Of a stretch of DNA of 64,000 nucleotides, positions 3,764 to 33,578 are shown piece by piece. Each line of letters begins with the position of its first letter. The first letter of the stretch is position 1. Under the pieces are notes generated by a model. That model had not been told where the DNA came from, did no database searches, and saw nothing but the letters and a program-made list of their open reading frames with translations. The DNA comes from Acutalibacteraceae bacterium. GTDB taxonomy: Bacteria; Bacillota; Clostridia; Oscillospirales; Acutalibacteraceae. The DNA lies in assembly GCA_045599345.1 (NCBI GenBank), contig JAZRVV010000019.1, forward strand, positions 3,103 through 67,102, read 5' to 3'. The position numbers and the translations under genes are program-made.

Positions 3764-5185
3764 TTGAAGAGAATCATTTCCCTTTTACTTTGTCTTTGCC
3801 TTATCCTCTCATTCACGGCGTGTAGCATGAATGGGAAAGGCAAGCTATCGAAAAAGGGCGATGGTGAGGACGAAATCTCAATCAAAATTCCGTTTTCACG
3901 TGAAGAGGGTTTAAACCCATTTGAGGCCAAGAGCCTCATGAACTATTGCATCATGCCTCTTATCTATTCAGGACTTTACACGGTTGATGCAAACTACAAT
4001 CCAATTATGGATATCGCAACTGGTGTGACCTATGAGGGCAAAAAGGCTACGGTCACAATTGATCCAGAGCGAAAGTTTTCTAACAGTAGAAAGATAACAG
4101 CGGATGACGTTGTTTACTCATATAATCTTGCTAAGAAGTCGACCTATTATGGTTCCTTACTCCGTAACGTCACAGGATGCGTCAAGGTGTCCGACACAGA
4201 GGTTTACTTCGGTGCATCCACACCGAATATATACCTCGCAGCGTCGTTGACCTTCCCGATTATTCCTGATGGTTCAGCAAGGGACGCAGTGCCTCACGGC
4301 GCTGGCCCTTACATCTTCACCAAGACATCAGAAGGCGGAACCCTTTCCGCAAACATGTATTATCCAAACGGGGATTACGCAACCAAGACGATTTCACTCA
4401 TCAATGTTACAGATGCATCCAACCTCAATATCGGCCTTGTAATTGGCAATATGAATGCAATGTACGATGACTTGTCGTCTGGCAAGAGCCAGCGTATTGC
4501 TGCAGGCTCAGCTCAGGTTGATTTAAACAATCTCATTTACTTAAAGTTCAATCACAGCAATATTTTTGCAAATCCAAAGCTTCGTCAAGCAGTAGCTGTT
4601 TTGTTAAACAAAGAGGAATTGATGAACGCTGGATTTGAGGGATATGGACAGGCAACTGATGTTCCATTCAACCCACAGTGGTTTAATGCAGAGGGACTTA
4701 AGGGACCAGAGCTTTCCTATGAGGAGGCTCAGGAGTATCTGACCCATGCACTTGGTGCATACAACATAGACATCCTTGTCAATAGCGACAATATGTTTAA
4801 ACTCAAGTGCGCTGAGACGGTTGCGTCCGAGCTTGCTGTCGCAGGTATCAGCGCTTCTGTTCAAGCAGTGCCTCGTGAGATCATGGACGAAGGCATCGAG
4901 GCAGGAAATTACGATTTATACGTTGCTGAGTTTAAGATGAGCAACGATATGAATATAGGCCCGCTCCTCCACGAAGAGGACGACCTTGATACACAAATAG
5001 CATTCTTTACATTCCTATCTGGCAATACATCTGGTGAGGACTTTATGGCCGTGTTCAATGAGAACATGCCATTCATCCCAGTGTGTATTAGATATGGCGT
5101 TGTGTCATATTCAAAGGGAATTCAGGGTGGTATAGCACCACTGCCGAATAACCCTTATGCCAATTTGATGGAATGGTACTTATAG
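3764..5185 (+). CDS. Lipoprotein resembling a family-5 (peptide/nickel type) ABC substrate-binding protein
   Basis: Lipobox signal peptide MKRIISLLLCLCLILSFTAC. The size (473 aa) and overall sequence character fit SBP_bac_5 from memory. No permease or ATPase gene is adjacent. Confidence 0.55.
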   Translation: MKRIISLLLCLCLILSFTACSMNGKGKLSKKGDGEDEISIKIPFSREEGLNPFEAKSLMNYCIMPLIYSGLYTVDANYNPIMDIATGVTYEGKKATVTIDPERKFSNSRKITADDVVYSYNLAKKSTYYGSLLRNVTGCVKVSDTEVYFGASTPNIYLAASLTFPIIPDGSARDAVPHGAGPYIFTKTSEGGTLSANMYYPNGDYATKTISLINVTDASNLNIGLVIGNMNAMYDDLSSGKSQRIAAGSAQVDLNNLIYLKFNHSNIFANPKLRQAVAVLLNKEELMNAGFEGYGQATDVPFNPQWFNAEGLKGPELSYEEAQEYLTHALGAYNIDILVNSDNMFKLKCAETVASELAVAGISASVQAVPREIMDEGIEAGNYDLYVAEFKMSNDMNIGPLLHEEDDLDTQIAFFTFLSGNTSGEDFMAVFNENMPFIPVCIRYGVVSYSKGIQGGIAPLPNNPYANLMEWYL

Positions 5186-17129: not shown

Positions 17130-17316
17130 ATGAACACTCCTTTCTTTGAGATGGACTATAATACTACATTATTTTACCATAATCAAGTATTGTCATTTTG
17201 AACAAATTGTTAACGGCCTACTCGTGCAATATTGTTAATGCATCCGTAGATATTTTATTTTAATTTTGGTATATTATTACTGGTTAAATTTGCATTTTCA
17301 ATTGGAGTTGATTTTG

Positions 17317-17913
17317 ATGAAAGGAAATAGAGCACTCAGATTGCTTGCAACAGTCGTTACTATCGTTATTCTCATATGCTCATTGTCTTTATTTGCCTTC
17401 GCAGAATCAACTTTTTCTATTCCAGATGGCACCAAGACAGTTTCACCTGGCATGGTTCCAGATGATGCAACAACGGTTAACATCCCAAATTCCGTTGTCG
17501 CAATTGAGTCCGGTGCTTTCGTAAACTGTAAGGGACTTAACACAGTCAACATTGACAATGTTAGTGGTTCAGTGCTTTATGACGCTTCTGCATTCTATGG
17601 TGGAACAATATCTGTTCGTTACCTTATGGCAAATGTTCCTACATCAACTGTTACAACAACAGAGCCTGCGAAAGTAGTGCCAGAGACAACAACTGAACCA
17701 GAGACAGAGGTTATTGTTGATGCAACACCATTTGCTGCAGCAAAGCAGGAACTCTCAGATGTTGATGTTTGGGATCAGCTTGTTGACAACGCTGGTCCAC
17801 TAGAGTCACCACAGGACACATCAACTGTTCTTTCAAGAGTAATTGCATATGGTGTAACCGGTATTGTATGTATCGGTGCAGTTGCCCTTTGCGTAATTAA
17901 ATTTAAGAAGTAA
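17317..17913 (+). CDS. Secreted protein with one BspA-type LRR segment, a T/E/P-rich linker and a C-terminal TM anchor
   Basis: Signal peptide from ATG 17317. LRR-like IPNSVVAIESGAFVNCKGLNTVNI. C-terminal GIVCIGAVALCVIKFKK. Confidence 0.5.
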   Translation: MKGNRALRLLATVVTIVILICSLSLFAFAESTFSIPDGTKTVSPGMVPDDATTVNIPNSVVAIESGAFVNCKGLNTVNIDNVSGSVLYDASAFYGGTISVRYLMANVPTSTVTTTEPAKVVPETTTEPETEVIVDATPFAAAKQELSDVDVWDQLVDNAGPLESPQDTSTVLSRVIAYGVTGIVCIGAVALCVIKFKK

Positions 17914-23163: not shown

Positions 23164-24651
23164 TTACTTGTGGAAGAGGGTGTTGGACTGGTACTCTGGC
23201 TCGCAAGTGAGGTTGATGCCAAGCTTCTTGTAGATTTCGGCATCAACACTTGAGACGATGACTGTCGTGTGAGCCTCGCAGCCACGAAGGCTTGAAAGAC
23301 AGTCCATAGCGCGGGCAGCATTTTTGTCAGTAGCCGCTGCGATGGAGAGCGCGATGAGCGTCTCGTCAGAGTGGAGGCGTGGATTCTTGCTGCCAAGCGT
23401 GTCGGTTTTGAGAGCCTGGATAGGCTCGAAAACCATAGGAGGAATAAGGTGTACCTCATCCTTGATATCAGCAAGTTCCTTGAGTGCATTGAGAAGCACT
23501 GCTGAGCAGGAACCAAGCAAATCGGTTGTACGACCGGTTACAATGTGACCGTTTGGAAGTTCGATTGCTGCTGCTGGAAGTCCGCCATTGTCGCGAGACT
23601 TGGCACAGGAAACAGCGATTACTTCACGGTCATCCTTGGTAAGTCCTGCCTGCTTTACTATCATCTCAAGCTTCATTACAAGGTCGTTTTCAACAATGCC
23701 CTTCTTTTTATCGCAGAGGGCCTTGTAATACCTGCGGATGATTTCTTGGTTGGCAGCATAGATACATGCATCATCGTCAATGATGCAGTTGCCTGCCATA
23801 TTAACACCCATGTCTGTTGGTGATTTGTATGGTGACTCACCAGAGATTTCCTCAAAGATTGCATTGAGGACTGGGAATACTTCAACATCACGGTTGTAGT
23901 TTACTGTTGTCTTGCCATAGGCCTCAAGGTGGAATGGGTCAATCATGTTGACGTCATCAAGGTCAGCTGTTGCTGCCTCATAGGCCAAGTTTACAGGATG
24001 CTTGAGTGGGAGATTCCAGATTGGGAATGTCTCGAACTTGGCATATCCTGATTTGATGCCACGCTTGTTATCGTGGTAGAGCTGTGAGAGGCATGTTGCC
24101 ATTTTGCCACTACCAGGACCAGGAGCTGTGATGACTACAAGTTCACGAGTTGTATGGATGTATTCGTTCTTGCCAAATCCCTCATCGGATACGATGAGTG
24201 GGATGTTTGATGGATAACCATCAATTGGATAGTGGCGATATACGTCAACGCCAAGGTTCTCAAGACGCTTCTTGAACGCATCGGCAGATGGTTGGTTCTG
24301 ATAGCGTGTAAGCACTACGCTACCAACATAGAGGCCGATGCTCTTGAATGCGTCGATAAGGCGAAGGATTTCAAGGTCATAGGTGATGCCTGTATCGCCG
24401 CGAACCTTGTTCTTTTCAATATCGCCAGCATTGATTGCGATAACTATTTCTGCCTTGTCCTTGAGCTGGAGGAGCATCTGAAGTTTACTGTCTGGTTTGA
24501 AACCAGGGAGAACACGTGAGGCATGATAGTCGTCGAAGAGTTTGCCACCAAACTCTAGGTAGAGTTTGCCACCAAAGCTTTCGATACGCTTCGCAATATG
24601 CTCAGATTGTGTCTGAAGATATTTTTCATTGTCGAATCCTATTTTGCCCAT
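23164..24651 (-). CDS. DUF1846 / UPF0371 family protein
   Basis: 495 aa. The N-terminus MGKIGFDNEKYLQTQSEHI and the length match UPF0371 as I remember it. Its start overlaps the sortase stop by 13 nt. Confidence 0.8.
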   Translation of the reverse strand: MGKIGFDNEKYLQTQSEHIAKRIESFGGKLYLEFGGKLFDDYHASRVLPGFKPDSKLQMLLQLKDKAEIVIAINAGDIEKNKVRGDTGITYDLEILRLIDAFKSIGLYVGSVVLTRYQNQPSADAFKKRLENLGVDVYRHYPIDGYPSNIPLIVSDEGFGKNEYIHTTRELVVITAPGPGSGKMATCLSQLYHDNKRGIKSGYAKFETFPIWNLPLKHPVNLAYEAATADLDDVNMIDPFHLEAYGKTTVNYNRDVEVFPVLNAIFEEISGESPYKSPTDMGVNMAGNCIIDDDACIYAANQEIIRRYYKALCDKKKGIVENDLVMKLEMIVKQAGLTKDDREVIAVSCAKSRDNGGLPAAAIELPNGHIVTGRTTDLLGSCSAVLLNALKELADIKDEVHLIPPMVFEPIQALKTDTLGSKNPRLHSDETLIALSIAAATDKNAARAMDCLSSLRGCEAHTTVIVSSVDAEIYKKLGINLTCEPEYQSNTLFHK

Positions 24652-25370
24652 ACGGTTTTTACCTCTTTTGCTACTATTACAAATCTTTCTGTTTTTGTCC
24701 TACTCGTACATGTTGAAAGAGTGACGAATTTTTCTTTGCCTGTGAACTTCATATTAGGCTTGTTACATTCGGCTCTGTCATAAATTGCTTCAATCCAAGC
24801 TTTTTGAATGTCACTGTTTGTGAATTTGAATTTGTAAACTGGATCTGTTGTCTCAACTGTGAGTGCAGCAACAATTTGGTACTGCTTTTCAGTGTCGCCA
24901 TAGAGAATGTACACGTTTGGATGATTGTTAAAGTAATCGGAATTCTTATACTTTTTAAGCGAGCCAAACATCGAATCGTTTCGCGTGTTGTGACCATAGA
25001 TTACGGTGTTTGGGTCATCCATTGAACAGTACTGGTCTATGAAAATACTACCAAAGTCGGAGTAGACATTGTCATATGTGTGCTTTAGGTAGTACTGGTT
25101 GTCCTCTGGCTGAAGGAGCGGGTAGTCAACCGGTGTGTCCGGTATTTTGATCCATCCAGCAATGTCTTCGTTGGTCTTTTTGAGCTCTACTAAATCAACT
25201 ATGAAGTGGTAGTCTTTGTTCTCTGTGACCTCTTCAACCTTGTTTTGAACACCCTCATAAAGCTGATTGCCACGACGATAGTTTAGGCCGATTTTTATCA
25301 GTTGAGAGAGGGAGAATATAAAGAGGGCAATGAAAATTACTTCAAGTATTGTGTATATGCGCTTTTTCAT
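24639..25370 (-). CDS. srtB: Class B sortase
   Basis: N-terminal TM anchor, DYPLLQ...DNQYYLKH motif, GSIFID, and catalytic TLSTC. Start set at ATG 25370, after GAGGAGGG. Confidence 0.85.
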   Translation of the reverse strand: MKKRIYTILEVIFIALFIFSLSQLIKIGLNYRRGNQLYEGVQNKVEEVTENKDYHFIVDLVELKKTNEDIAGWIKIPDTPVDYPLLQPEDNQYYLKHTYDNVYSDFGSIFIDQYCSMDDPNTVIYGHNTRNDSMFGSLKKYKNSDYFNNHPNVYILYGDTEKQYQIVAALTVETTDPVYKFKFTNSDIQKAWIEAIYDRAECNKPNMKFTGKEKFVTLSTCTSRTKTERFVIVAKEVKTVWAK

Positions 25371-25502
25371 TTTATCCCTCCTCAAAATTACAGATAATTA
25401 TATCATAAATTGGGAAGCCTTACCACTTTTTTTGGTACTTTATTTTTAAGGTTTTTAATATTATAATTAAATATGTATATTTAATAAAACGAGGTTTACA
25501 CT

Positions 25503-26696
25503 ATGCAAGCAAAAAGACTTTCTCGAGTCTTGGCGTTATTGCTCGTACTTTGTATGATGGTCTTTACCTTTACCGCCTGTGGCGATAAAGAGGAGCCAAC
25601 ACTTGAAACTACAAAGTCAGACCTCACTACTGAACCTCAGAGTTCAGACGAGACGACATCGGGTGAAGATGCCAGTGATAACACTGGATCTTATACGTCG
25701 GGCAAGTCTGATGGAGGTAAGTCTACAACCAAGAATTCTGGTGGCAAGTCTACGACCAAGGATTCTAGTGGTGGCACTAAAGCTACAACAAAGAGTGGCG
25801 GAGGTTCAGGCGGTGGCGGTCAGCAACAGCCAAAGACTACAAAACCGAAGCAGACAGCAGCTCCGACACAAGCAAAGTCTAACACTTATTATGCACCACA
25901 GGTTATCTATAACTCTGCACCGGGCACACTTGTTCAGACTTTCTCAGATGGAAGCGCAATTGATTATTCAAATACTGCTAGTGGATATGTAATGGTCAAG
26001 TACGCAGGACCACACTCCAACGTACGTGTCCAGGTTACAGCGCCAGGTGGTTCTAAACCAGTTTATCCTATATTCTCAAGGGACTGGGAAGCACTACCAC
26101 TCACAAATGGTAATGGTACATATTCAATAGCCCTTCTTGCAAATGATGGTGGCACATCCTACACTGTTGCCGGCAAGCTTGACGTAAACGTTGCTTTGTC
26201 GTACTCAACAGTGGCTTTCTATAGACCAAACATCTTCTGCAACTACAGTGGAGGCACTTCGTGCGTTACATACGCCGCTGAGCTTACACGAGGCTGCGAT
26301 ACAGAGATGGCTAAAATTGAGGCAATCTACAACTACGTTGTAAACAATTTTAGATACGACTATGGCAAGGCATCCTCAGTAGCCTCATCGGCGTACGTTC
26401 CAAACCTCAACAGCGTTTGGGCATCAAAATCAGGAATCTGTTTTGACTACGCATCAACGATGGCGGCAATGCTTAGGACACAGGGACTGCCAACCAAGGT
26501 CTGTGTTGGCTATGTAAATGGCAGCACATATCACGCTTGGATTTCTGTATATGTTTCCGGCAGTGGTTGGGTAAACGGAATTATCCAGTTTAACGGCAAC
26601 ACTTGGAAACTTATGGACCCAACATTTGCATCGACCGGTGGCAACAAGTATGACTGGTCCACGAAGGGATCTTATTCAACAATGTATTACTATTGA
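25503..26696 (+). CDS. Lipoprotein with an S/T/G/K-rich linker and a transglutaminase-core (Cys-His-Asp) domain
   Basis: Lipobox FTFTAC. Low-complexity residues roughly 30-120. Triad contexts GICFDYAS, YHAWISVY and LMDPT. Confidence 0.8.
   Translation: MQAKRLSRVLALLLVLCMMVFTFTACGDKEEPTLETTKSDLTTEPQSSDETTSGEDASDNTGSYTSGKSDGGKSTTKNSGGKSTTKDSSGGTKATTKSGGGSGGGGQQQPKTTKPKQTAAPTQAKSNTYYAPQVIYNSAPGTLVQTFSDGSAIDYSNTASGYVMVKYAGPHSNVRVQVTAPGGSKPVYPIFSRDWEALPLTNGNGTYSIALLANDGGTSYTVAGKLDVNVALSYSTVAFYRPNIFCNYSGGTSCVTYAAELTRGCDTEMAKIEAIYNYVVNNFRYDYGKASSVASSAYVPNLNSVWASKSGICFDYASTMAAMLRTQGLPTKVCVGYVNGSTYHAWISVYVSGSGWVNGIIQFNGNTWKLMDPTFASTGGNKYDWSTKGSYSTMYYY
25713..25766 (+). repeat. 27-nt in-frame tandem repeat (x2) inside the transglutaminase lipoprotein linker
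   Basis: ggaggtaagtctacaaccaagaattct / ggtggcaagtctacgaccaaggattct, encoding GGKSTTKNS / GGKSTTKDS. Confidence 0.8.
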
Positions 26697-26713
26697 TATA
26701 AAGGAGAACGAAC

Positions 26714-27757
26714 ATGAGTATAAAACAGCTTGATGGACCTTATCTCTCATCATTTTGTATGGAACTCTCACTCTGCCTTAAAGCAGGTATCTCTCTCAAT
26801 GAGGGACTCTTTATGCTCGCACAGGATGAGACAGATAAGGATTTAAAAGAAATGCTCTCTTCACTCTACGAGAAGATGGACGGCGGTATGAGTCTTGAAG
26901 AGGCTTTGGGTGAGGCAGGATGCTTCCCTAAATATTTAGTAGAAATGATCGAGATTGGTTCTCGTACAGGTAGGCTTGAAGCAGTGCTTCGCGCACTCTC
27001 AGCTTATTACACAAGACAGGTTGAAATTACAAGAAGCATCAAGAGTGCAGTTGTATATCCTCTTGTTTTGATGTTTATGTTGCTTCTCGTTATCGGCGTA
27101 CTTATTACAAAGGTACTCCCAATCTTTAACGATGTATTCCATGAGCTTGGCGCAGAGATGAGCCCAGTTGCAGTAAGCATCATGAACTTTGGTACTGGTA
27201 TTACAAAGTATGCAGCAATTATCCTTGCAGTAGTTGTTGTAATTGCAATCGTTGCAATCTTTATCAGCGCAGTACCAAGTCTTTCACTTAAGTGTGTAAA
27301 CTTCTTTAATAAAATCACATCTAATAGAAAAATCTCTAAGAAGATTGCATCTGCTCGTTTTGCAAACGGCATGGCAATGACACTTGCATCTGGTCTTGAT
27401 ACAGATGAATCACTTGATATGGTAGAGCGCATTACAGACAACCCTGTAATGCTTGGCCGTATTTCAAAGTGCCGTGAACTTATGAAGCAGGGCGAACTTT
27501 TCGTAGATGCTATTGCAAAGTCCGAGATATTTAACTCTATGTACTGCCGTATGCTTTCAATCGGTTTCAAGACCGGTACAGCAGACACAGTAATGGATGA
27601 GATTGCTCACCGCAGCGAAGCTGAGGTTGACGAGAATATCGAGTCAATTATCAACAAGGTTGAGCCAACACTTGTTATCATCATGTCACTTGTAGTTGGT
27701 CTTATCCTTCTTTCAGTAATGCTCCCACTTATGAGCATCATGACCACAATAGGTTAA
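26714..27757 (+). CDS. Type II secretion/type IV pilus platform protein (GspF/PilC/ComGB-like, two T2SSF repeats)
   Basis: 347 aa. It has two internally similar halves (about residues 10-130 and 205-340), each ending in TM helices. The second ends in the family-typical EP..II motif. Confidence 0.85.
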   Translation: MSIKQLDGPYLSSFCMELSLCLKAGISLNEGLFMLAQDETDKDLKEMLSSLYEKMDGGMSLEEALGEAGCFPKYLVEMIEIGSRTGRLEAVLRALSAYYTRQVEITRSIKSAVVYPLVLMFMLLLVIGVLITKVLPIFNDVFHELGAEMSPVAVSIMNFGTGITKYAAIILAVVVVIAIVAIFISAVPSLSLKCVNFFNKITSNRKISKKIASARFANGMAMTLASGLDTDESLDMVERITDNPVMLGRISKCRELMKQGELFVDAIAKSEIFNSMYCRMLSIGFKTGTADTVMDEIAHRSEAEVDENIESIINKVEPTLVIIMSLVVGLILLSVMLPLMSIMTTIG

Positions 27758-27777
27758 ACGTCTAAGGAGTAAGATTT

Positions 27778-28125
27778 ATGGAAACTAAAGTAAGGAAGCG
27801 CTCGGCGTTTGAAATAATACGTGGGCATCTCCTGTCTATAGTGTTCTTCGTAGTCATTTTTGCATTCTTTATTTACGGCGTAAATAGCGCCGAGAAGAAC
27901 TCCGCATCGGAGAGCAAAAATGTGCTAGAAGAAAGCCTCCATAAAGCAGTAGTTTCCTGCTATGCGCTTGAGGGTGCTTACCCATCAAGCGTGCAGTACC
28001 TTGAAGACAACTACGGCTTAACTTATGACAAAGATAAGTATGCAATAGGCTATGTCGCATTTGCCGACAACATCATGCCTGACATGCAAATCATTGAACT
28101 AGGTGAGGAGGTACCCGCAGAATGA
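27778..28125 (+). CDS. Small membrane-anchored protein with a pilin-like N-terminus (non-canonical)
   Basis: 115 aa. Basic leader METKVRKRS, then AFEIIRGHLLSIVFFVVIFAFFIYGV. AAGGAG RBS. The stop overlaps the next start (ATGA). Confidence 0.5.
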   Translation: METKVRKRSAFEIIRGHLLSIVFFVVIFAFFIYGVNSAEKNSASESKNVLEESLHKAVVSCYALEGAYPSSVQYLEDNYGLTYDKDKYAIGYVAFADNIMPDMQIIELGEEVPAE

Positions 28126-28619
28126 AAAAGAGAACTGCTTACACAGTAGATACAATATTTGTGTTGGTTCTCTTTGCAGTATTCGCTATTACAGTACTTT
28201 TCGTACTGATGAGCGGAGCGGGTGTCTATAAGGACACGCAGAGCGTTATGACAGAGAGATATCAAGAACGCACATGTCTCTCATATATAACAGCAAAGGT
28301 CAACCATTACGACGAAAGCGGCAAGGTCTATGTAGCCGATGTAAACGGCGTGCAGGCGCTTGCAGTTGACGAGGAAATGGGTGGAACCACATACACAACA
28401 TATATCTACTGCACCGATGGTTCGGTGAAGGAGATAATGGTAGAAAAGGGAGCATCATTTGAACTTGATGCTGGCCTTGATATCATTGCAGCAAAGAAGC
28501 TGAGTTTTGAGACAAACGATAACCTCATCAAGGTTATCTGTACTGGCGAGACGGGCAAAACCGCTTTCGTCACCCTCCATGTTGCATCAGGATTAGGAGG
28601 TGGCGAGATTGAAGACTAA
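28122..28619 (+). CDS. DUF4860-like small protein with a pilin-like N-terminus
   Basis: 165 aa. MKKRT then AYTVDTIFVLVLFAVFAITVLFVLM, with an acidic residue at +5 of the putative mature end. Confidence 0.55.
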   Translation: MKKRTAYTVDTIFVLVLFAVFAITVLFVLMSGAGVYKDTQSVMTERYQERTCLSYITAKVNHYDESGKVYVADVNGVQALAVDEEMGGTTYTTYIYCTDGSVKEIMVEKGASFELDAGLDIIAAKKLSFETNDNLIKVICTGETGKTAFVTLHVASGLGGGEIED

Positions 28620-29043
28620 CAAAAGGTCTAAGTCATCCCTCTTCCTTATGGAAATAATCATAGTTTTGATGTTCTTCGCACTTTCAGCAGCTATTTGTAT
28701 GAAGGTGTTCTCAAGTGCCAAGATTAAGACTGAACTCTCTCGTGATATGACAAACGCAAGTTTTGCAGCAGAGAGTATCGCCGAGGCTTGGAAGGCAGAT
28801 AAACTTGATGGAACTGACTTTGCCTCAATCTATCCAAACTCAACAGAACACGATGGAATTATCACTGTGTTCTATGACAAGGATTGGACCCTTGAGGAAA
28901 AATATCAGGGCGCTTATCATGCAACTATAGAGGAGCACGCTGACAAGTACTTCGTACAGGCACACGTTGCCGTATACGATGACTCTGGCGCATTGCTCTT
29001 TGATATGGTTACGGCAGTGAGCCCAGACAAGGGGGTAGAGTAA
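28600..29043 (+). CDS. Pseudopilin-like protein (prepilin-type N-terminus lacking Gly-1)
   Basis: A basic leader ends in KSS, followed by LFLMEIIIVLMFFALSAAI (Glu at +5). The likely start is TTG 28609, after GGAGG. It overlaps the upstream gene. Confidence 0.6.
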   Translation: MARLKTNKRSKSSLFLMEIIIVLMFFALSAAICMKVFSSAKIKTELSRDMTNASFAAESIAEAWKADKLDGTDFASIYPNSTEHDGIITVFYDKDWTLEEKYQGAYHATIEEHADKYFVQAHVAVYDDSGALLFDMVTAVSPDKGVE

Positions 29044-29498
29044 TGGAACAGAATGAACGCAAATCATCCGGTATCAATATCGGTAGTGCAAGTATCATAA
29101 TGGTCTTCTCCGTACTTTGCCTCACAATCTTTGCAGTACTTACCTTTATGACATCGAACAACGAGTACAAGCTTGCTGAGAAGTCTGCACGTACAATGCA
29201 GACGTATTATGCAGCAGATGCTGGTGCCGTTGTTATAGAAGGCAAGATACGTGAAGCATTGGCAAACAATCCGGATGCCGCAAGTGCACTTAGTGAAGTA
29301 AAGGGACTTGGCGTTGCAGGTGCTGCAATGGACGACGGTTACCACTTTAGCTATGCACAAGGCATGGATGACGACCAAGAAATTCAAGTTGAGCTCCTCT
29401 ATACAGGTGGCGACCTTAAAATTCTCAAGTGGGAACTTGTTAATGTCGCAGAGTGGAGCGCAGACGGTGAAGTACATCTTTGGGATGGTGAGTTTTAA
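29043..29498 (+). CDS. Small membrane-anchored protein of the filament operon
   Basis: 151 aa. MEQNERKSSG then INIGSASIIMVFSVLCLTIFAVL. Both its start and its stop overlap the neighbouring genes by 1 nt. Confidence 0.5.
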   Translation: MEQNERKSSGINIGSASIIMVFSVLCLTIFAVLTFMTSNNEYKLAEKSARTMQTYYAADAGAVVIEGKIREALANNPDAASALSEVKGLGVAGAAMDDGYHFSYAQGMDDDQEIQVELLYTGGDLKILKWELVNVAEWSADGEVHLWDGEF

Positions 29499-30562
29499 TG
29501 GATTTATTAACACTTCTTCGCGGTGCAGTTGAGCAGCAGGCATCGGACATCTTTGTCCTTGCCAGCCTTCCTCTTTCATACAAACTAAACGGCATTATCG
29601 TGCCACAGGAAGAGGAGCGCATGACTCCGCAGACAACTCGCGCACTTATTGAGGAAATATATGATACAGCAGGACGTCCTATGGATCACCTTTTAGCATC
29701 TGGTGACGATGACTTCTCGCTTGCTATCAGTGGCCTCTCTCGTTTCAGAGTAAGCACATACAAGCAGCGTGGATCACTCGCTGCTGTTATCCGTCTGGTT
29801 TCATTTGATATTCCAGATTACAAGGATTTGGGCATTCCAGATTCTGTTATGTCTATCGCTGAAAAGACAAAGGGCCTTGTACTTGTAACAGGTCCTGCAG
29901 GCGGTGGTAAGTCAACCACACTTGCCTGCATCATCGATAGGATTAACAAGACAAGAAACGGTCATATAATCACACTTGAGGAACCACTTGAGTACCTCCA
30001 CCGCAATGATAAATGCGTAATCTCACAGCGTGAGATTGGCTCTGACTCAGCTGACTACGTAGCTGCACTTCGTGCATGCCTTCGTCAGGCTCCTGATGTT
30101 ATCCTTGTTGGTGAGATGCGTGACTATGAGACTATCAAGACAGCTATGACTGCTGCTGAGACAGGACACCTTGTCATCTCAACACTCCATACCGTTGGCG
30201 CTGCCAATACAATCGATCGTGTTATCGATGTATTCCCACCTAATCAGCAACAGCAGATTAGGGTACAGCTCGCACAGCTTTTGCAGTGCGTAGTATCACA
30301 ACAGTTGATCCCAACTGTTGACGGCGCACTGGTACCAGCGTTTGAGGTTATGAACCTTAATAGCGCAATTCGTAATATGATTCGTGAGTCCAAGGTACAT
30401 CAAATAGACTCAATCATTGCAACATCAGCTGCCGAAGGCATGGTTGCAATGGATTCAAGTATATTTGACCTTTACGACAACGGAATCATTTCCGAAATGA
30501 ACGCTATTAAGTTTGCATCAAACGCTGACCTTCTCAAGAAAAAGATGCAGATGAAAAAGTAA
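29498..30562 (+). CDS. pilT: PilT-family type IV pilus (retraction-type) ATPase
   Basis: 354 aa with Walker A VTGPAGGGKSTT, Walker B DVILVGEMRD, His box ETGHLVISTLHT and the PilT signature AIRNMIRE. Confidence 0.9.
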   Translation: MDLLTLLRGAVEQQASDIFVLASLPLSYKLNGIIVPQEEERMTPQTTRALIEEIYDTAGRPMDHLLASGDDDFSLAISGLSRFRVSTYKQRGSLAAVIRLVSFDIPDYKDLGIPDSVMSIAEKTKGLVLVTGPAGGGKSTTLACIIDRINKTRNGHIITLEEPLEYLHRNDKCVISQREIGSDSADYVAALRACLRQAPDVILVGEMRDYETIKTAMTAAETGHLVISTLHTVGAANTIDRVIDVFPPNQQQQIRVQLAQLLQCVVSQQLIPTVDGALVPAFEVMNLNSAIRNMIRESKVHQIDSIIATSAAEGMVAMDSSIFDLYDNGIISEMNAIKFASNADLLKKKMQMKK

Positions 30563-30573
30563 GACAAAATAAG

Positions 30574-30610
30574 AACTCCTGACTAGCGACCTAGTCAGGA
30601 GTTTTGTTTT
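30574..30610. terminator. Bidirectional rho-independent terminator
   Basis: 13-bp stem aactcctgactag/ctagtcaggagtt, flanked by a/t-rich runs on both sides. Confidence 0.7.
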
Positions 30611-30615
30611 AAGAT

Positions 30616-31407
30616 TTAATTAAGTTCCTTGAGAGAAAATACAACTAGTGGATAATCATCTGCATATTCAGGGTACTTTGAAACTGTCATCTCAAAAGCA
30701 GTGCCCTTTTTGTCCCTAAAGATTAGGACCATTCTATCCTTGCCCTCATCAAGTTGCTTCTTGATGTTGGCATAGTCCATGAATCTAGTAAATGGAACTT
30801 GGAAATCCTCGGATATGTAGTTGGTGCAGACGTCGTTCATCATCTCAAGATGAGAACCAAACTGTTTTGCATATACATCGTAGTCGTCTCCTGTGTTGGA
30901 GTAAACAAGCCTGCTCATGCTGTTTGAGAGGTCGATTACATATACAAGGATGTAGTTGTATACAAGCTGTTCCATAACAGCTTTGTTGAATACTTCGGCT
31001 CTGTTTTCCTCAGTTTTTTTAACGTCGTCATCGACAAGAAAAACGTTGAAGAAAAATACAGTATGACCCGAGCCGTCATCGATTGGAACAAGACGAATTC
31101 TAAACCAGTGGTACTGGTGATCGTCAAAGCCCATCATCAATGCTTCGACACGGAGAGTCTGGTTATTGTCAAAGGCAGTTTTGAGATACTGCGTTGTGAG
31201 CTCGTTCTTGAGTTTGTTCTTAAAAAGTGGATGCATCAATGTATCCGCAATTTCAACAAACTCATCAAAGGTACGCTCAATGTATCCAACACCCTTGCCA
31301 TTGTATGTGATGCAGTAGTTGTCATCAATGTCGATGATTGTGTTGTAGAGAAACTGGGTGCTAACAAAGGTGGCAACTATAGTCTCAATACGCTTTTTAT
31401 CCATCAT
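30616..31407 (-). CDS. Hypothetical cytoplasmic protein, possibly a tandem PAS-like sensor module without an output domain
   Basis: 263 aa from ATG 31407, with an AGGGGG RBS. The ORF-track 5' extension was trimmed because it runs through the tRNA. Segments such as YHWFRIRLVPIDDGSGH resemble PAS cores. No enzymatic motif is seen. Confidence 0.55.
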   Translation of the reverse strand: MMDKKRIETIVATFVSTQFLYNTIIDIDDNYCITYNGKGVGYIERTFDEFVEIADTLMHPLFKNKLKNELTTQYLKTAFDNNQTLRVEALMMGFDDHQYHWFRIRLVPIDDGSGHTVFFFNVFLVDDDVKKTEENRAEVFNKAVMEQLVYNYILVYVIDLSNSMSRLVYSNTGDDYDVYAKQFGSHLEMMNDVCTNYISEDFQVPFTRFMDYANIKKQLDEGKDRMVLIFRDKKGTAFEMTVSKYPEYADDYPLVVFSLKELN

Positions 31408-31427
31408 AGAATATACGCCCCCTAAAG

Positions 31428-31503
31428 TGGAGCTGGAAACGTGACTCGAACACGCGACCTGCTCATTACGAATGAGCTGCTCTACCAACTGAGCTATTCC
31501 AGC
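31428..31503 (-). tRNA. tRNA-Thr (anticodon CGT)
   Basis: The manual cloverleaf is as follows. Acceptor GCTGGAA/TTCCAGC. D arm GCTC-AGTTGGTA-GAGC. Anticodon arm GCTCA-TTCGTAA-TGAGC. Variable loop AGGTC. T arm GCGTG-TTCGAGT-CACGT. Encoded CCA. Confidence 0.95.
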
Positions 31504-32696: not shown

Positions 32697-32762
32697 GAGA
32701 ATTCATTGACTTTAAAATGGGGTTATGGTAACATACATAGGTAATTTTGAGGAGGTCTCACT

Positions 32763-33578
32763 ATGAAGAGAATTATCGCACTTTTACTCGTTCTCGTTAT
32801 GGCGTTAACACTTTGTGCATGTCATAAAAATGAGGACCCAACCCTTGAGCCTGATTACAAGGATGGACAGGGTTCTAGCAGCAACCTTGACCTTTCAGCA
32901 TTTGAGGGTAAACTTTTAAAGCCATACGTTGAACTTATTGCATCTGGTAACTACTATTTCAAGATTTCTTCTGCTGAAGGCGGAGAAGAGGAAATGTTCA
33001 CACAGATTGGTAAAGATAAGATGATTTCTATCAAGAACCAGGGCTACGACTTCATCAAGAAGGGCGACGGCACACTCTACTGTGTAACAGGAAGCCAGTA
33101 TGTTGAACTTAATACCAAGAACCTTTCAGTAGTATCTGCTGAAACAGCACAGCTCGTTGACAGCCTTAAGCTAGTCTTTGATCAGTCAGAGAAACTTGTT
33201 TCTGATATGGTTACAATGACTCCAACAGACAAGGCAAGCTCACTTTCTGTTAAGGATTATAAGCACGAGGAATATGTTGATAAGTGGGGTACTCTCTACA
33301 GCTTCTTCTTTGATAGCAGCAATGTACTTGTTGCCTATGCAAGAATAGAGAGTGAGACAAATTACGCTATTACAATAGTTGAATTTGGTACTCCATCACC
33401 TAATACAATTAGCAACATCTTCCTCAACTATACACAGGTTGATGCTGGTGACGTTTCAACACAGCAGCAGACAACAACTACAACACAGGCGCCTACAACA
33501 ACTACAACACAGGCACCTAAGCAGCAGACACCTGCTCCTGCAGCACAGCAGCCAGCAGCTCCTGCAACAGTAGGCTAA
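32763..33578 (+). CDS. Lipoprotein of unknown function with a T/Q/A/P-rich tail
   Basis: Signal peptide plus lipobox LTLCAC. The C-terminus is low complexity: TTTTTQAPTTTTTQAPKQQTPAPAAQQ. Confidence 0.6.
   Translation: MKRIIALLLVLVMALTLCACHKNEDPTLEPDYKDGQGSSSNLDLSAFEGKLLKPYVELIASGNYYFKISSAEGGEEEMFTQIGKDKMISIKNQGYDFIKKGDGTLYCVTGSQYVELNTKNLSVVSAETAQLVDSLKLVFDQSEKLVSDMVTMTPTDKASSLSVKDYKHEEYVDKWGTLYSFFFDSSNVLVAYARIESETNYAITIVEFGTPSPNTISNIFLNYTQVDAGDVSTQQQTTTTTQAPTTTTTQAPKQQTPAPAAQQPAAPATVG
33471..33518 (+). repeat. 24-nt in-frame tandem repeat (x2, 1 mismatch)
   Basis: acaacaactacaacacaggcgcct / acaacaactacaacacaggcacct, encoding TTTTTQAP twice. Confidence 0.85.

Follow-up and report, generated by a model that had tools for sequence, protein, structure and literature searches.

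What kind of machine is encoded by a set of pilus-like genes in which the only ATPase is of the PilT family and the first gene specifies a transglutaminase-fold enzyme? The question is raised by a stretch of 64,000 nucleotides (nt) from an Acutalibacteraceae bacterium (GenBank assembly GCA_045599345.1, contig JAZRVV010000019.1, positions 3,103 to 67,102 of the forward strand), here called the window, in which seven coupled open reading frames (ORFs) of the + strand occupy positions 25503-30562. These genes form a distinct and widespread module, composed of a PilT-clade ATPase, a short platform protein, pilin-derived proteins, and a transglutaminase-fold exoenzyme. The explanation favoured here, tentatively and with slightly less than even confidence, is that the operon represents a separate, conserved, Clostridia-specific member of the type IV filament (T4F) superfamily, being neither a piece nor a member of the type IVa pilus (T4aP), competence (Com), type II secretion (T2SS), or Tad systems. 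The seven genes, the hairpin which follows them, and a divergent neighbouring gene are, in window coordinates:

25503-26696, + strand: gene 1, lipoprotein with a transglutaminase core (397 amino acids (aa); PF01841)
26714-27757, + strand: gene 2, short platform protein of the PilC/GspF type (347 aa; PF00482, twice)
27778-28125, + strand: gene 3, small protein S1 (115 aa; without a Pfam family)
28122-28619, + strand: gene 4, small protein S2 (165 aa; DUF4860, PF16152)
28600-29043, + strand: gene 5, small protein S3 (147 aa; GTG start; predicted degenerate type IV pilin)
29043-29498, + strand: gene 6, small protein S4 (151 aa; N-terminal membrane helix)
29498-30562, + strand: gene 7, PilT-family ATPase (354 aa; TIGR01420)
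30574-30603, both strands: hairpin resembling a bidirectional intrinsic terminator (13-bp stem; T-rich tails)
24639-25385, - strand: class B sortase (TIGR03064), a divergent neighbour outside the core

A seven-gene module conserved across Clostridia

Between the seven genes, the first two junctions are gaps (17 and 20 nt) and the remaining four are overlaps (4, 20, 1, and 1 nt, in order). A preliminary description of the window, made from its letters alone, had reported seven same-strand genes with this spacing, and the same gaps and overlaps are recovered from the ORF coordinates. The strong bidirectional terminator which it placed after pilT corresponds to the hairpin at 30574-30603, the tails reading TTGTTTT on the + strand and CTTATTTTGT on the - strand, and the hairpins within the operon are weak consensus ones only. 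Profile searches bear out every domain call of that description. Its statement that no assembly ATPase accompanies PilT in the window also holds, a phmmer search of the six-frame translation with the module proteins having revealed no second gene for a T2SSE ATPase, a T2SSF platform, or a sortase; an extra transglutaminase match at 32751-33575 (E 3.5e-4, 14 bits) was put down to low-complexity sequence. No polytopic peptidase resembling PilD was evident on reading the ORF list of the window, to which profiles were not applied, and the PHROGs database returned nothing.

Beyond the window, 108 related loci (designated by L numbers) were drawn from a genome scan, a metagenome scan seeded with S1, and contigs encoding distant homologues of DUF4860 or S1; they reduce to 90 that are non-redundant by S1 sequence, with proteins assigned by iterative profiles. 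In this survey of neighbourhoods, which had been proposed along with the preliminary description, the set of transglutaminase, platform, four small proteins, and PilT proved conserved: all seven genes are present in 31 of the 31 non-redundant loci with enough flank on both sides, a recurrence far beyond chance. PilC occurs in every one of the 43 loci with room upstream and, where there is room downstream, S2, S3, and S4 are found in 40 of 40 loci and PilT in 39. The order of the module genes is constant with the exception of the transglutaminase gene. No second gene for a T2SSE ATPase or a T2SSF platform lies within 10 kb of the module in the 31 full loci, and clustering of the flanking ORFs yielded no family recognised as PilB-, PilD-, or PilMNO-like, with PilD and PilM/N/O being judged from the Pfam annotations of some flanks and not by profile. 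Assemblies carrying the module are named Oscillospiraceae, Acutalibacteraceae, Ruminococcaceae, and Lachnospiraceae; a further S1 homologue named Peptococcaceae brings the total to five families of Clostridia. Carrier metagenomes come from termite gut, human gut, and a fermenter, and the closest named relative is a Candidatus Limimonas egerieequi assembly from an equine metagenome, whose S2 is 95% identical.

The preliminary description had itself allowed that the operon might be a fragment of a standard pil or comG locus. This is ruled out by Acetoanaerobium noterae DSL2, in which the module (L109) and a complete canonical T4aP locus (L111) are present together, 757 kb apart; the module is thus not a displaced pil or com fragment, in keeping with the lack of PilB or a second PilC within 10 kb in the 31 full loci. 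The canonical locus encodes PilB (559 aa), its own PilT and platform (PilC, 405 aa), PilA with the N-terminus KG/FTLIE (here and below, the slash stands between positions -1 and +1), larger minor pilins, and PilN (PF05137) flanked by ORFs in the PilM and PilO positions. The module of A. noterae has the order PilC-S1-S2-S3-S4-PilT with the transglutaminase gene, a Transglut_core match, placed last, after pilT. Each of the S1-S4 profiles matches only its positional counterpart in this organism (S4 with E 1.4e-16), and the S2 counterpart scores 93.5 bits with DUF4860 and begins with KG/VSKVE. A tblastn search of the A. noterae chromosome found four T2SSE places and three T2SSF places, one more of each than the module and canonical genes account for. 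The replicon concerned, NZ_CP154629.1, is listed in PLSDB as 'plasmid pTPELB2' of A. noterae DSL2 but, at 2.63 Mb and carrying housekeeping as well as pilus loci, is evidently the chromosome.

The ATPase, the platform, and the small proteins

The ATPase encoded by gene 7 scores 411.3 bits with the PilT/PilU model TIGR01420, against a cut-off of 319.1 and with the alignment starting at model residue 3, and remains below the cut-offs of the ComGA (131 of 300 bits), GspE (128 of 630), and TadA-type (35 of 373) models, falling far short of the PilB model as well. Compared with proteins of solved structure, it scores 265-321 bits with PilT (321 with Aquifex PilT), 247 with PilU, and at most 94 with PilB/GspE. 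At 354 aa it is devoid of the N-terminal domains of PilB/GspE, and it carries the motifs GPAGGGKST, EEPLEY, DVILVGEMRD, TGHLVISTLHT, and AIRNMIRE. Walker A, Asp box, Walker B, and His box are conserved in essentially all of 44 aligned module PilTs, consisting of the window protein and 43 unique orthologues; one of them has Gln replacing the His-box His, and the AIRNxIRE motif occurs in variant forms. In a neighbour-joining tree built from 351 columns, the module PilTs, that of A. noterae included, fall into one clade in 193 of 200 bootstraps, and the split between PilT and PilB is found in 200 of 200, though with only two canonical PilTs as comparators this result is indicative, not final. Identity of the module PilTs is 43-51% to the canonical A. 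noterae PilT and 28-30% to PilB. Model scores, structure scores, and tree therefore agree with the earlier assignment of the ATPase to PilT instead of ComGA or PilB, and the tree indicates that it belongs to a module-specific clade inside PilT.

The platform protein matches PF00482 with 153.6 bits in two stretches, corresponding to the two T2SSF repeats that the preliminary description had recognised as a PilC-like architecture. It scores 184, 166, and 127 bits with the GspF, PilC, and ComGB models, reaching none of their respective cut-offs of 424, 700, and 240. Its alignments to these models begin near position 65, and a counterpart of the ~65 N-terminal residues of canonical PilC is absent. 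With the canonical PilC of A. noterae it shares 28% identity over residues 68-405 of the latter.

Of the small proteins, S3 resembles a pilin at its N-terminus. Its sequence there, RSKSS/LFLME, with Ser at -1 and Glu at +5, runs into a hydrophobic helix, and a profile search of the PDB places Geobacter PilA-N (RNKKG/FTLIE) and PilE1 at the top, their N-termini aligning in register although the matches are weak (E 0.02-0.6). The motif is present in 64 of 68 unique orthologues, all 64 with Glu at +5, and the residue at -1 in these is Ser in 28, Thr in 22, Gly in 9, Ala and Pro in 2 each, and Ile in 1. In A. noterae, S3 begins with NG/FTLIE and passes both PF07963 (28.4 bits against a cut-off of 21.2) and TIGR02532. 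Taken by its sequence, S3 can be regarded as a degenerate type IV pilin.

S2 is a DUF4860 protein (PF16152, 101.6 bits against a cut-off of 25), a family whose profile, at E no higher than 1e-3, gathers 2,959 clusters at 50% identity. Its N-terminus, MKKRT/AYTVD, has Asp at +5 and is followed by a membrane helix; among orthologues the residue at +5 is acidic in 73 of 80, and Gly is found at -1 in 13 of 80. The AlphaFold2 model of S2 (predicted local distance difference test (pLDDT) 81) consists of a 58-residue helix and then an eight-stranded sheet, a pilin-like layout, and its top Foldseek matches by template modelling (TM) score and probability are the GspJ-type pseudopilins XcpW and EpsJ (probability 0.90-0.95, TM 0.38-0.39; E not significant). 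S4 begins with ..SSG INIGSAS before its membrane helix and has no acidic residue at +5. Its alignments feature a Gly-rich N-terminus (G-x-[NGH]-x-G-[SG]-x-S), YYAAD, and a C-terminal W..LWDG, and hhalign comparison with a canonical minor pilin devoid of E5 gave a weak result (probability 9%).

In S1 the N-terminal membrane helix extends as a long helix, to which a short helix and a beta-hairpin are appended, and an invariant motif, CYAxEGxYP...FAxNxMP, is present. No Pfam or NCBIfam match was found for it and no prepilin motif in any lineage, and the clusters of the S1 family, over 5,400 of them at 90% identity, all lack a Pfam domain. The AlphaFold2 model (pLDDT 88.5) shows the long N-terminal helix, short helix, and hairpin; its best Foldseek match is Thermus PilA4 (E 0.78, TM 0.44), with further type IV pilins lower and none significant. 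The two models suggest a pilin-like fold for S1 and S2. A stretch resembling S1 (43% identity, E 5e-13) also occurs at 4469-4669 of GenBank MT836211.1, an 11.9-kb contig from human faeces labelled 'Bacteriophage sp.', which is probably a bacterial contig filed as phage.

Exact look-ups with the S1 and S2 of the window matched no database record. Searches of PDB sequences with the S1, S2, and S4 profiles returned noise only, and none of the four window proteins passes N_methyl PF07963 or TIGR02532. To this extent the earlier claim that no protein here has a canonical pilin N-terminus stands, but it is qualified by the LFLME of S3 lying in register with G/FTLIE, by the acidic +5 of S2, and by the A. 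noterae S3. Judged from their N-termini, S2, S3, and S4 appear to be derived from prepilins, most of them without Gly at -1, with S2 and S3 keeping the acid at +5. PilD needs Gly at -1, and the loss of this residue in most cases, with Glu or Asp at +5 retained, implies that a standard prepilin peptidase probably does not process the subunits.

The transglutaminase-fold protein and the surroundings of the module

Gene 1 matches PF01841 with 76.5 bits (cut-off 23) and DUF553 with 40 bits. Its product starts with a signal peptide and lipobox (..FTAC), followed by a linker of low complexity, a beta-rich middle domain which is conserved, and the C-terminal transglutaminase core, in which the Cys-His-Asp triad sits in GICFDYA, YHAW, and MDPTF. 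The triad positions are conserved in 54 of 55 orthologues, a count that includes three misses by pattern matching judged by eye as kept, and the orthologues always start with a lipobox or signal peptide, which places the action of the protein outside the membrane; the preliminary description of an extracytoplasmic lipoprotein with an intact triad is thereby upheld. Of 43 loci with flank on the upstream side, 42 were found to have the gene, and phmmer detects it in the remaining one (L006). The gene lies on the opposite strand in L047, L049, and L085 and behind pilT in A. noterae. Linkage that is kept despite changes of strand and position is the strongest type of genomic evidence for a shared function, and the transglutaminase gene is thus co-conserved with the other six, in agreement with the preliminary description of a seven-gene operon. 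Prepilin leaders are cleaved at the cytoplasmic face of the membrane, and cleavage of pilin leaders by the transglutaminase-fold protein was rejected because the enzyme is extracytoplasmic.

A parallel exists in archaeal type IV pilus loci, which are linked to transglutaminase-family peptidases at the cell surface, and for which it was suggested that pilins might be processed or degraded by such enzymes (Makarova et al. 2016, PMC4858521). There, too, a T4F locus is linked to an extracellular transglutaminase-fold enzyme with a Cys-His-Asp triad, but the hosts belong to another domain of life, the ATPase is FlaI/PilB-like and not PilT, and the pilins are different, the likeness being one of gene linkage. 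Two further observations concern enzymes near gene 1 or its counterparts. A second transglutaminase-domain protein, a 724-aa polytopic membrane protein, is encoded 3 kb upstream of the A. noterae module (L109:2354-4528). In L001 (6441-7040) and L002, a GH25 lysozyme gene lies immediately 5' of the transglutaminase gene and replaces the sortase; the GH25-bearing locus is the most divergent of the genome scan, from an assembly named 'Ruminiclostridium sp.'.

The class B sortase gene at 24639-25385 (TIGR03064, 179.1 bits against a cut-off of 153.75) has counterparts in the flanks of many modules: a sortase is found in 18 of the 31 full loci, in three arrangements, namely upstream and divergent (the case of the window), immediately behind pilT (L025, L061, L094, L108), or upstream on the same strand (L105). 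TIGR03064 is the best model for all five sortases tested, three of which score above 153.75 and two below (L025 with 151.0 and L105 with 109.6). The sortase is a recurrent neighbour, not a core part of the module. There is a 13-nt overlap between the window's sortase gene and a DUF1846 gene (23164-24651, - strand), which suggests that the two genes make up an operon divergent from the module. Neither S1-S4 nor the transglutaminase protein could be entertained as sortase substrates, there being no C-terminal sorting signal in any of them. Surface proteins encoded beside the module are candidates. One, at L108:15180-16490, has DVPQTGD near its C-terminus and, after this motif, a hydrophobic tail and basic residues; another, at L025:15001-19989, is a protein of 1,662 aa with VWA and GBS104-like immunoglobulin (Ig) domains and DVPQTGD, its C-terminus being cut off. 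Both are likely sortase B substrates. A protein of 215 aa in the window (17266-17913, + strand) has a signal-like N-terminus and a C-terminus resembling a wall-sorting signal or membrane anchor (..SPQDTS.., a hydrophobic stretch, and KFKK), and may be a sortase B substrate also. An ORF at positions 1-741 of L015 has a similar C-terminus (..VPKTIS.., hydrophobic stretch, KFKR).

Regulators and other genes recur nearby as well. A BTAD/SARP-like regulator is encoded near the module in 9-10 diverse loci (L025, L047, L049, L057, L061, L087, L091, L094, L103, L108), mostly adjoining it and often just 5' of the transglutaminase gene, and in L027 a LytTR response regulator takes this position. Four of the five loci in which a sortase directly follows pilT are among those with the BTAD/SARP-like gene. 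The recurrent neighbours ABC-F, NifS, and NadA look like plain synteny. In an Rfam search the operon gave neither a riboswitch nor any other RNA, and the sole match in the window is a downstream tRNA gene (31431-31503, - strand; RF00005, 68.8 bits). It overlaps the 5' part of the ORF at 30616-31488 (- strand), so that the true start of the conserved gene within this ORF must lie further downstream.

Competing explanations and likeness to known systems

As a separate member of the T4F superfamily, the module would work by a PilT-clade hexamer docking on the platform and driving, with ATP, both the push and the pull of a stalk. This stalk would be a short structure akin to a pseudopilus or tip complex, built from S1-S4 in the wall zone of the single-membrane cell, with subunits that probably escape the standard prepilin peptidase and may remain membrane-anchored. 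The transglutaminase-fold enzyme would work next to the stalk, and its most likely role is that of a peptidase or isopeptidase which opens or remodels peptidoglycan peptides, or else processes cargo. The output would be the display or release of cell-surface proteins, as is suggested by the recurrent class B sortase, the VPQTG-type proteins, and the SARP-like regulators. A bolder version, which is possible but doubtful, holds the module to be an autonomous T4F of Clostridia with a PilT-clade protein as its sole motor, unprocessed subunits, neither PilB nor prepilin peptidase, a wall-active transglutaminase-fold partner, and a link to sortase B.

Comparison with described machines sets the module apart from each of them. 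With the T4aP of single-membrane bacteria (C. perfringens, C. difficile, Streptococcus sanguinis) the module has in common the single-membrane host, a platform of the PilC type, an ATPase of the PilT family, and proteins, apparently pilin-derived, that combine a hydrophobic N-terminal helix with an acidic +5. In contrast to T4aP, the module locus is without PilB, PilD, PilM/N/O, and a G/FxxxE major pilin (for PilD and PilMNO by annotation only), and it has a platform shorter by ~65 residues, a separate PilT clade, an obligatory transglutaminase exoenzyme, and subunits from which Gly -1 has mostly been lost. The tip complex of T2SS, formed by GspH/I/J/K, contains four small pilin-fold proteins, a number matched by the four small and putatively pilin-like proteins of the module; XcpW and EpsJ are the best, if non-significant, structural neighbours of S2, and S4 shares with GspK, which lacks the acidic +5 residue, the absence of this acid. 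The module, however, is without GspE, GspG, and secretin, sequence homology to T2SS was not detected, and a Pfam search of the module proteins gave no T2SSG or Flp match. Tad CpaF and the MSHA pilus of Vibrio cholerae, where PilT promotes both extension and retraction (PMC9815625), provide precedents for one ATPase, or for PilT, serving both directions of a filament. Both of these systems retain a dedicated assembly-type ATPase (CpaF, MshE), whereas the only ATPase of the module locus is of the PilT clade. For none of T4aP, Com, T2SS, or Tad was the defining set of components found complete in the module, consistent with the preliminary placement outside these machines. The same description's proposal of a distinct, minimal T4F variant survives in so far as the module is conserved and lies outside the four systems; the short pseudopilus that it envisaged is a conjecture, and its small proteins turn out to be less foreign than had been stated.

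Several points weigh against reading the operon as a filament machine of its own. PilT-family motors are known for retraction, and to our knowledge no PilT is the sole assembly motor of any system. PilB is present in A. noterae, the sole complete carrier genome inspected, so that the earlier notion of PilT as the only motor stays hypothetical; S2, S3, and S4 of its module also keep Gly at -1, by sequence reading and in the case of S3 by profile, and both peptidase and assembly ATPase could therefore act in trans. S1 has a basic N-terminus of ~17 residues with no class III signal, which argues against its being an extruded filament subunit. The likeness of S1 and S2 to pilins in Foldseek falls short of statistical significance (E at least 0.16, TM at most 0.44), and probabilities were low when S1, S3, and S4 were compared by hhalign with the canonical pilins of A. 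noterae.

Some of these observations would be expected if the module were an accessory to a canonical pilus or Com system, with a PilC2, a PilT2, and special minor pilins making use of PilB and PilD encoded elsewhere. This is a tentative alternative and on balance an unlikely one, as is the particular form of it in which the module, not self-sufficient, primes and retracts a specialised filament. In A. noterae not only PilB but also a second PilT and a second PilC are encoded elsewhere, and its S2, S3, and S4, having Gly at -1, seem open to cleavage by a standard peptidase, an enzyme absent from the module. The priming complexes of T2SS, T4aP, and Com usually use four minor pilins, which is also the number of small proteins here. 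Yet the canonical A. noterae locus is already equipped with a PilT, a PilC, and minor pilins of its own, the module always brings a platform and a transglutaminase-fold protein absent from canonical loci, and its PilT forms a separate clade; moreover, the loss of Gly -1 from S2 and S3 in most lineages is unexpected if a standard PilD must cleave them. A mechanical actuator with no free filament, in which ATPase and platform move an anchored stalk and so switch or position the transglutaminase-fold wall enzyme, is less probable still. It has an analogue in FtsEX, which controls NlpC/P60 or CHAP hydrolases, and would fit the loss of the peptidase site from S1-S4 with retention of a basic N-terminal anchor, the strict co-conservation of an extracytoplasmic papain-like enzyme, the lack of a major pilin with a canonical signal in the module, and the GH25 gene directly upstream in L001 and L002. 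Against it, binding of the transglutaminase protein to S1-S4 and its action on peptidoglycan are putative, and the acidic +5, kept in S3 as Glu by every motif carrier and in S2 by the great majority, serves subunit packing or extraction in known systems, so that its retention suggests real polymerisation.

A competence-type pseudopilus for DNA uptake, the functional equivalent of ComG in Clostridia, appears very improbable. ComG offers a similar parts list in one compact operon, comprising one small ATPase, a platform of ~340 aa, and four or five small pilin-like proteins, one of them without E5, in a single-membrane host, and the A. noterae S3 has a weak ComGE match (22.6 bits against a cut-off of 49). 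Here, however, the ATPase is a PilT, passing that model and failing ComGA, and the platform stays below the ComGB cut-off; there is no ComGC-like protein and no ComC in the module, and comEA and comEC were not noted among the Pfam annotations of the flanks or the recurrent neighbour families. The transglutaminase gene sets the module apart again, as we know of no described Com system with such a partner. A sporulation channel of the SpoIIIAA/AB kind was rejected, the ATPase passing the PilT model and sporulation genes lying near the module only in L001.

The separate T4F member favoured above is built of parts from known superfamilies, and as a module it is apparently undescribed. No paper on DUF4860/PF16152 or this gene set was found in the literature searched, in which few subscription journals were covered, and the systematic surveys of Imam 2011 and Denise 2019 contain no description of it. 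A PilT serving as sole dedicated ATPase would test whether the ATPase family fixes the direction of a motor, and subunits that have lost the peptidase site but kept the +5 acid pose the question of whether pilin-like proteins can function unprocessed. The obligatory transglutaminase-fold partner hints at an unstudied step, the passage of filament or cargo through a thick wall. For DUF4860 and three families without a Pfam entry, the module supplies a context and a likely class of role. Being common in Clostridia of gut, rumen, and termite gut, often near genes for sortase B and adhesin-like proteins, it may bear on how these commensals build their surfaces and attach.

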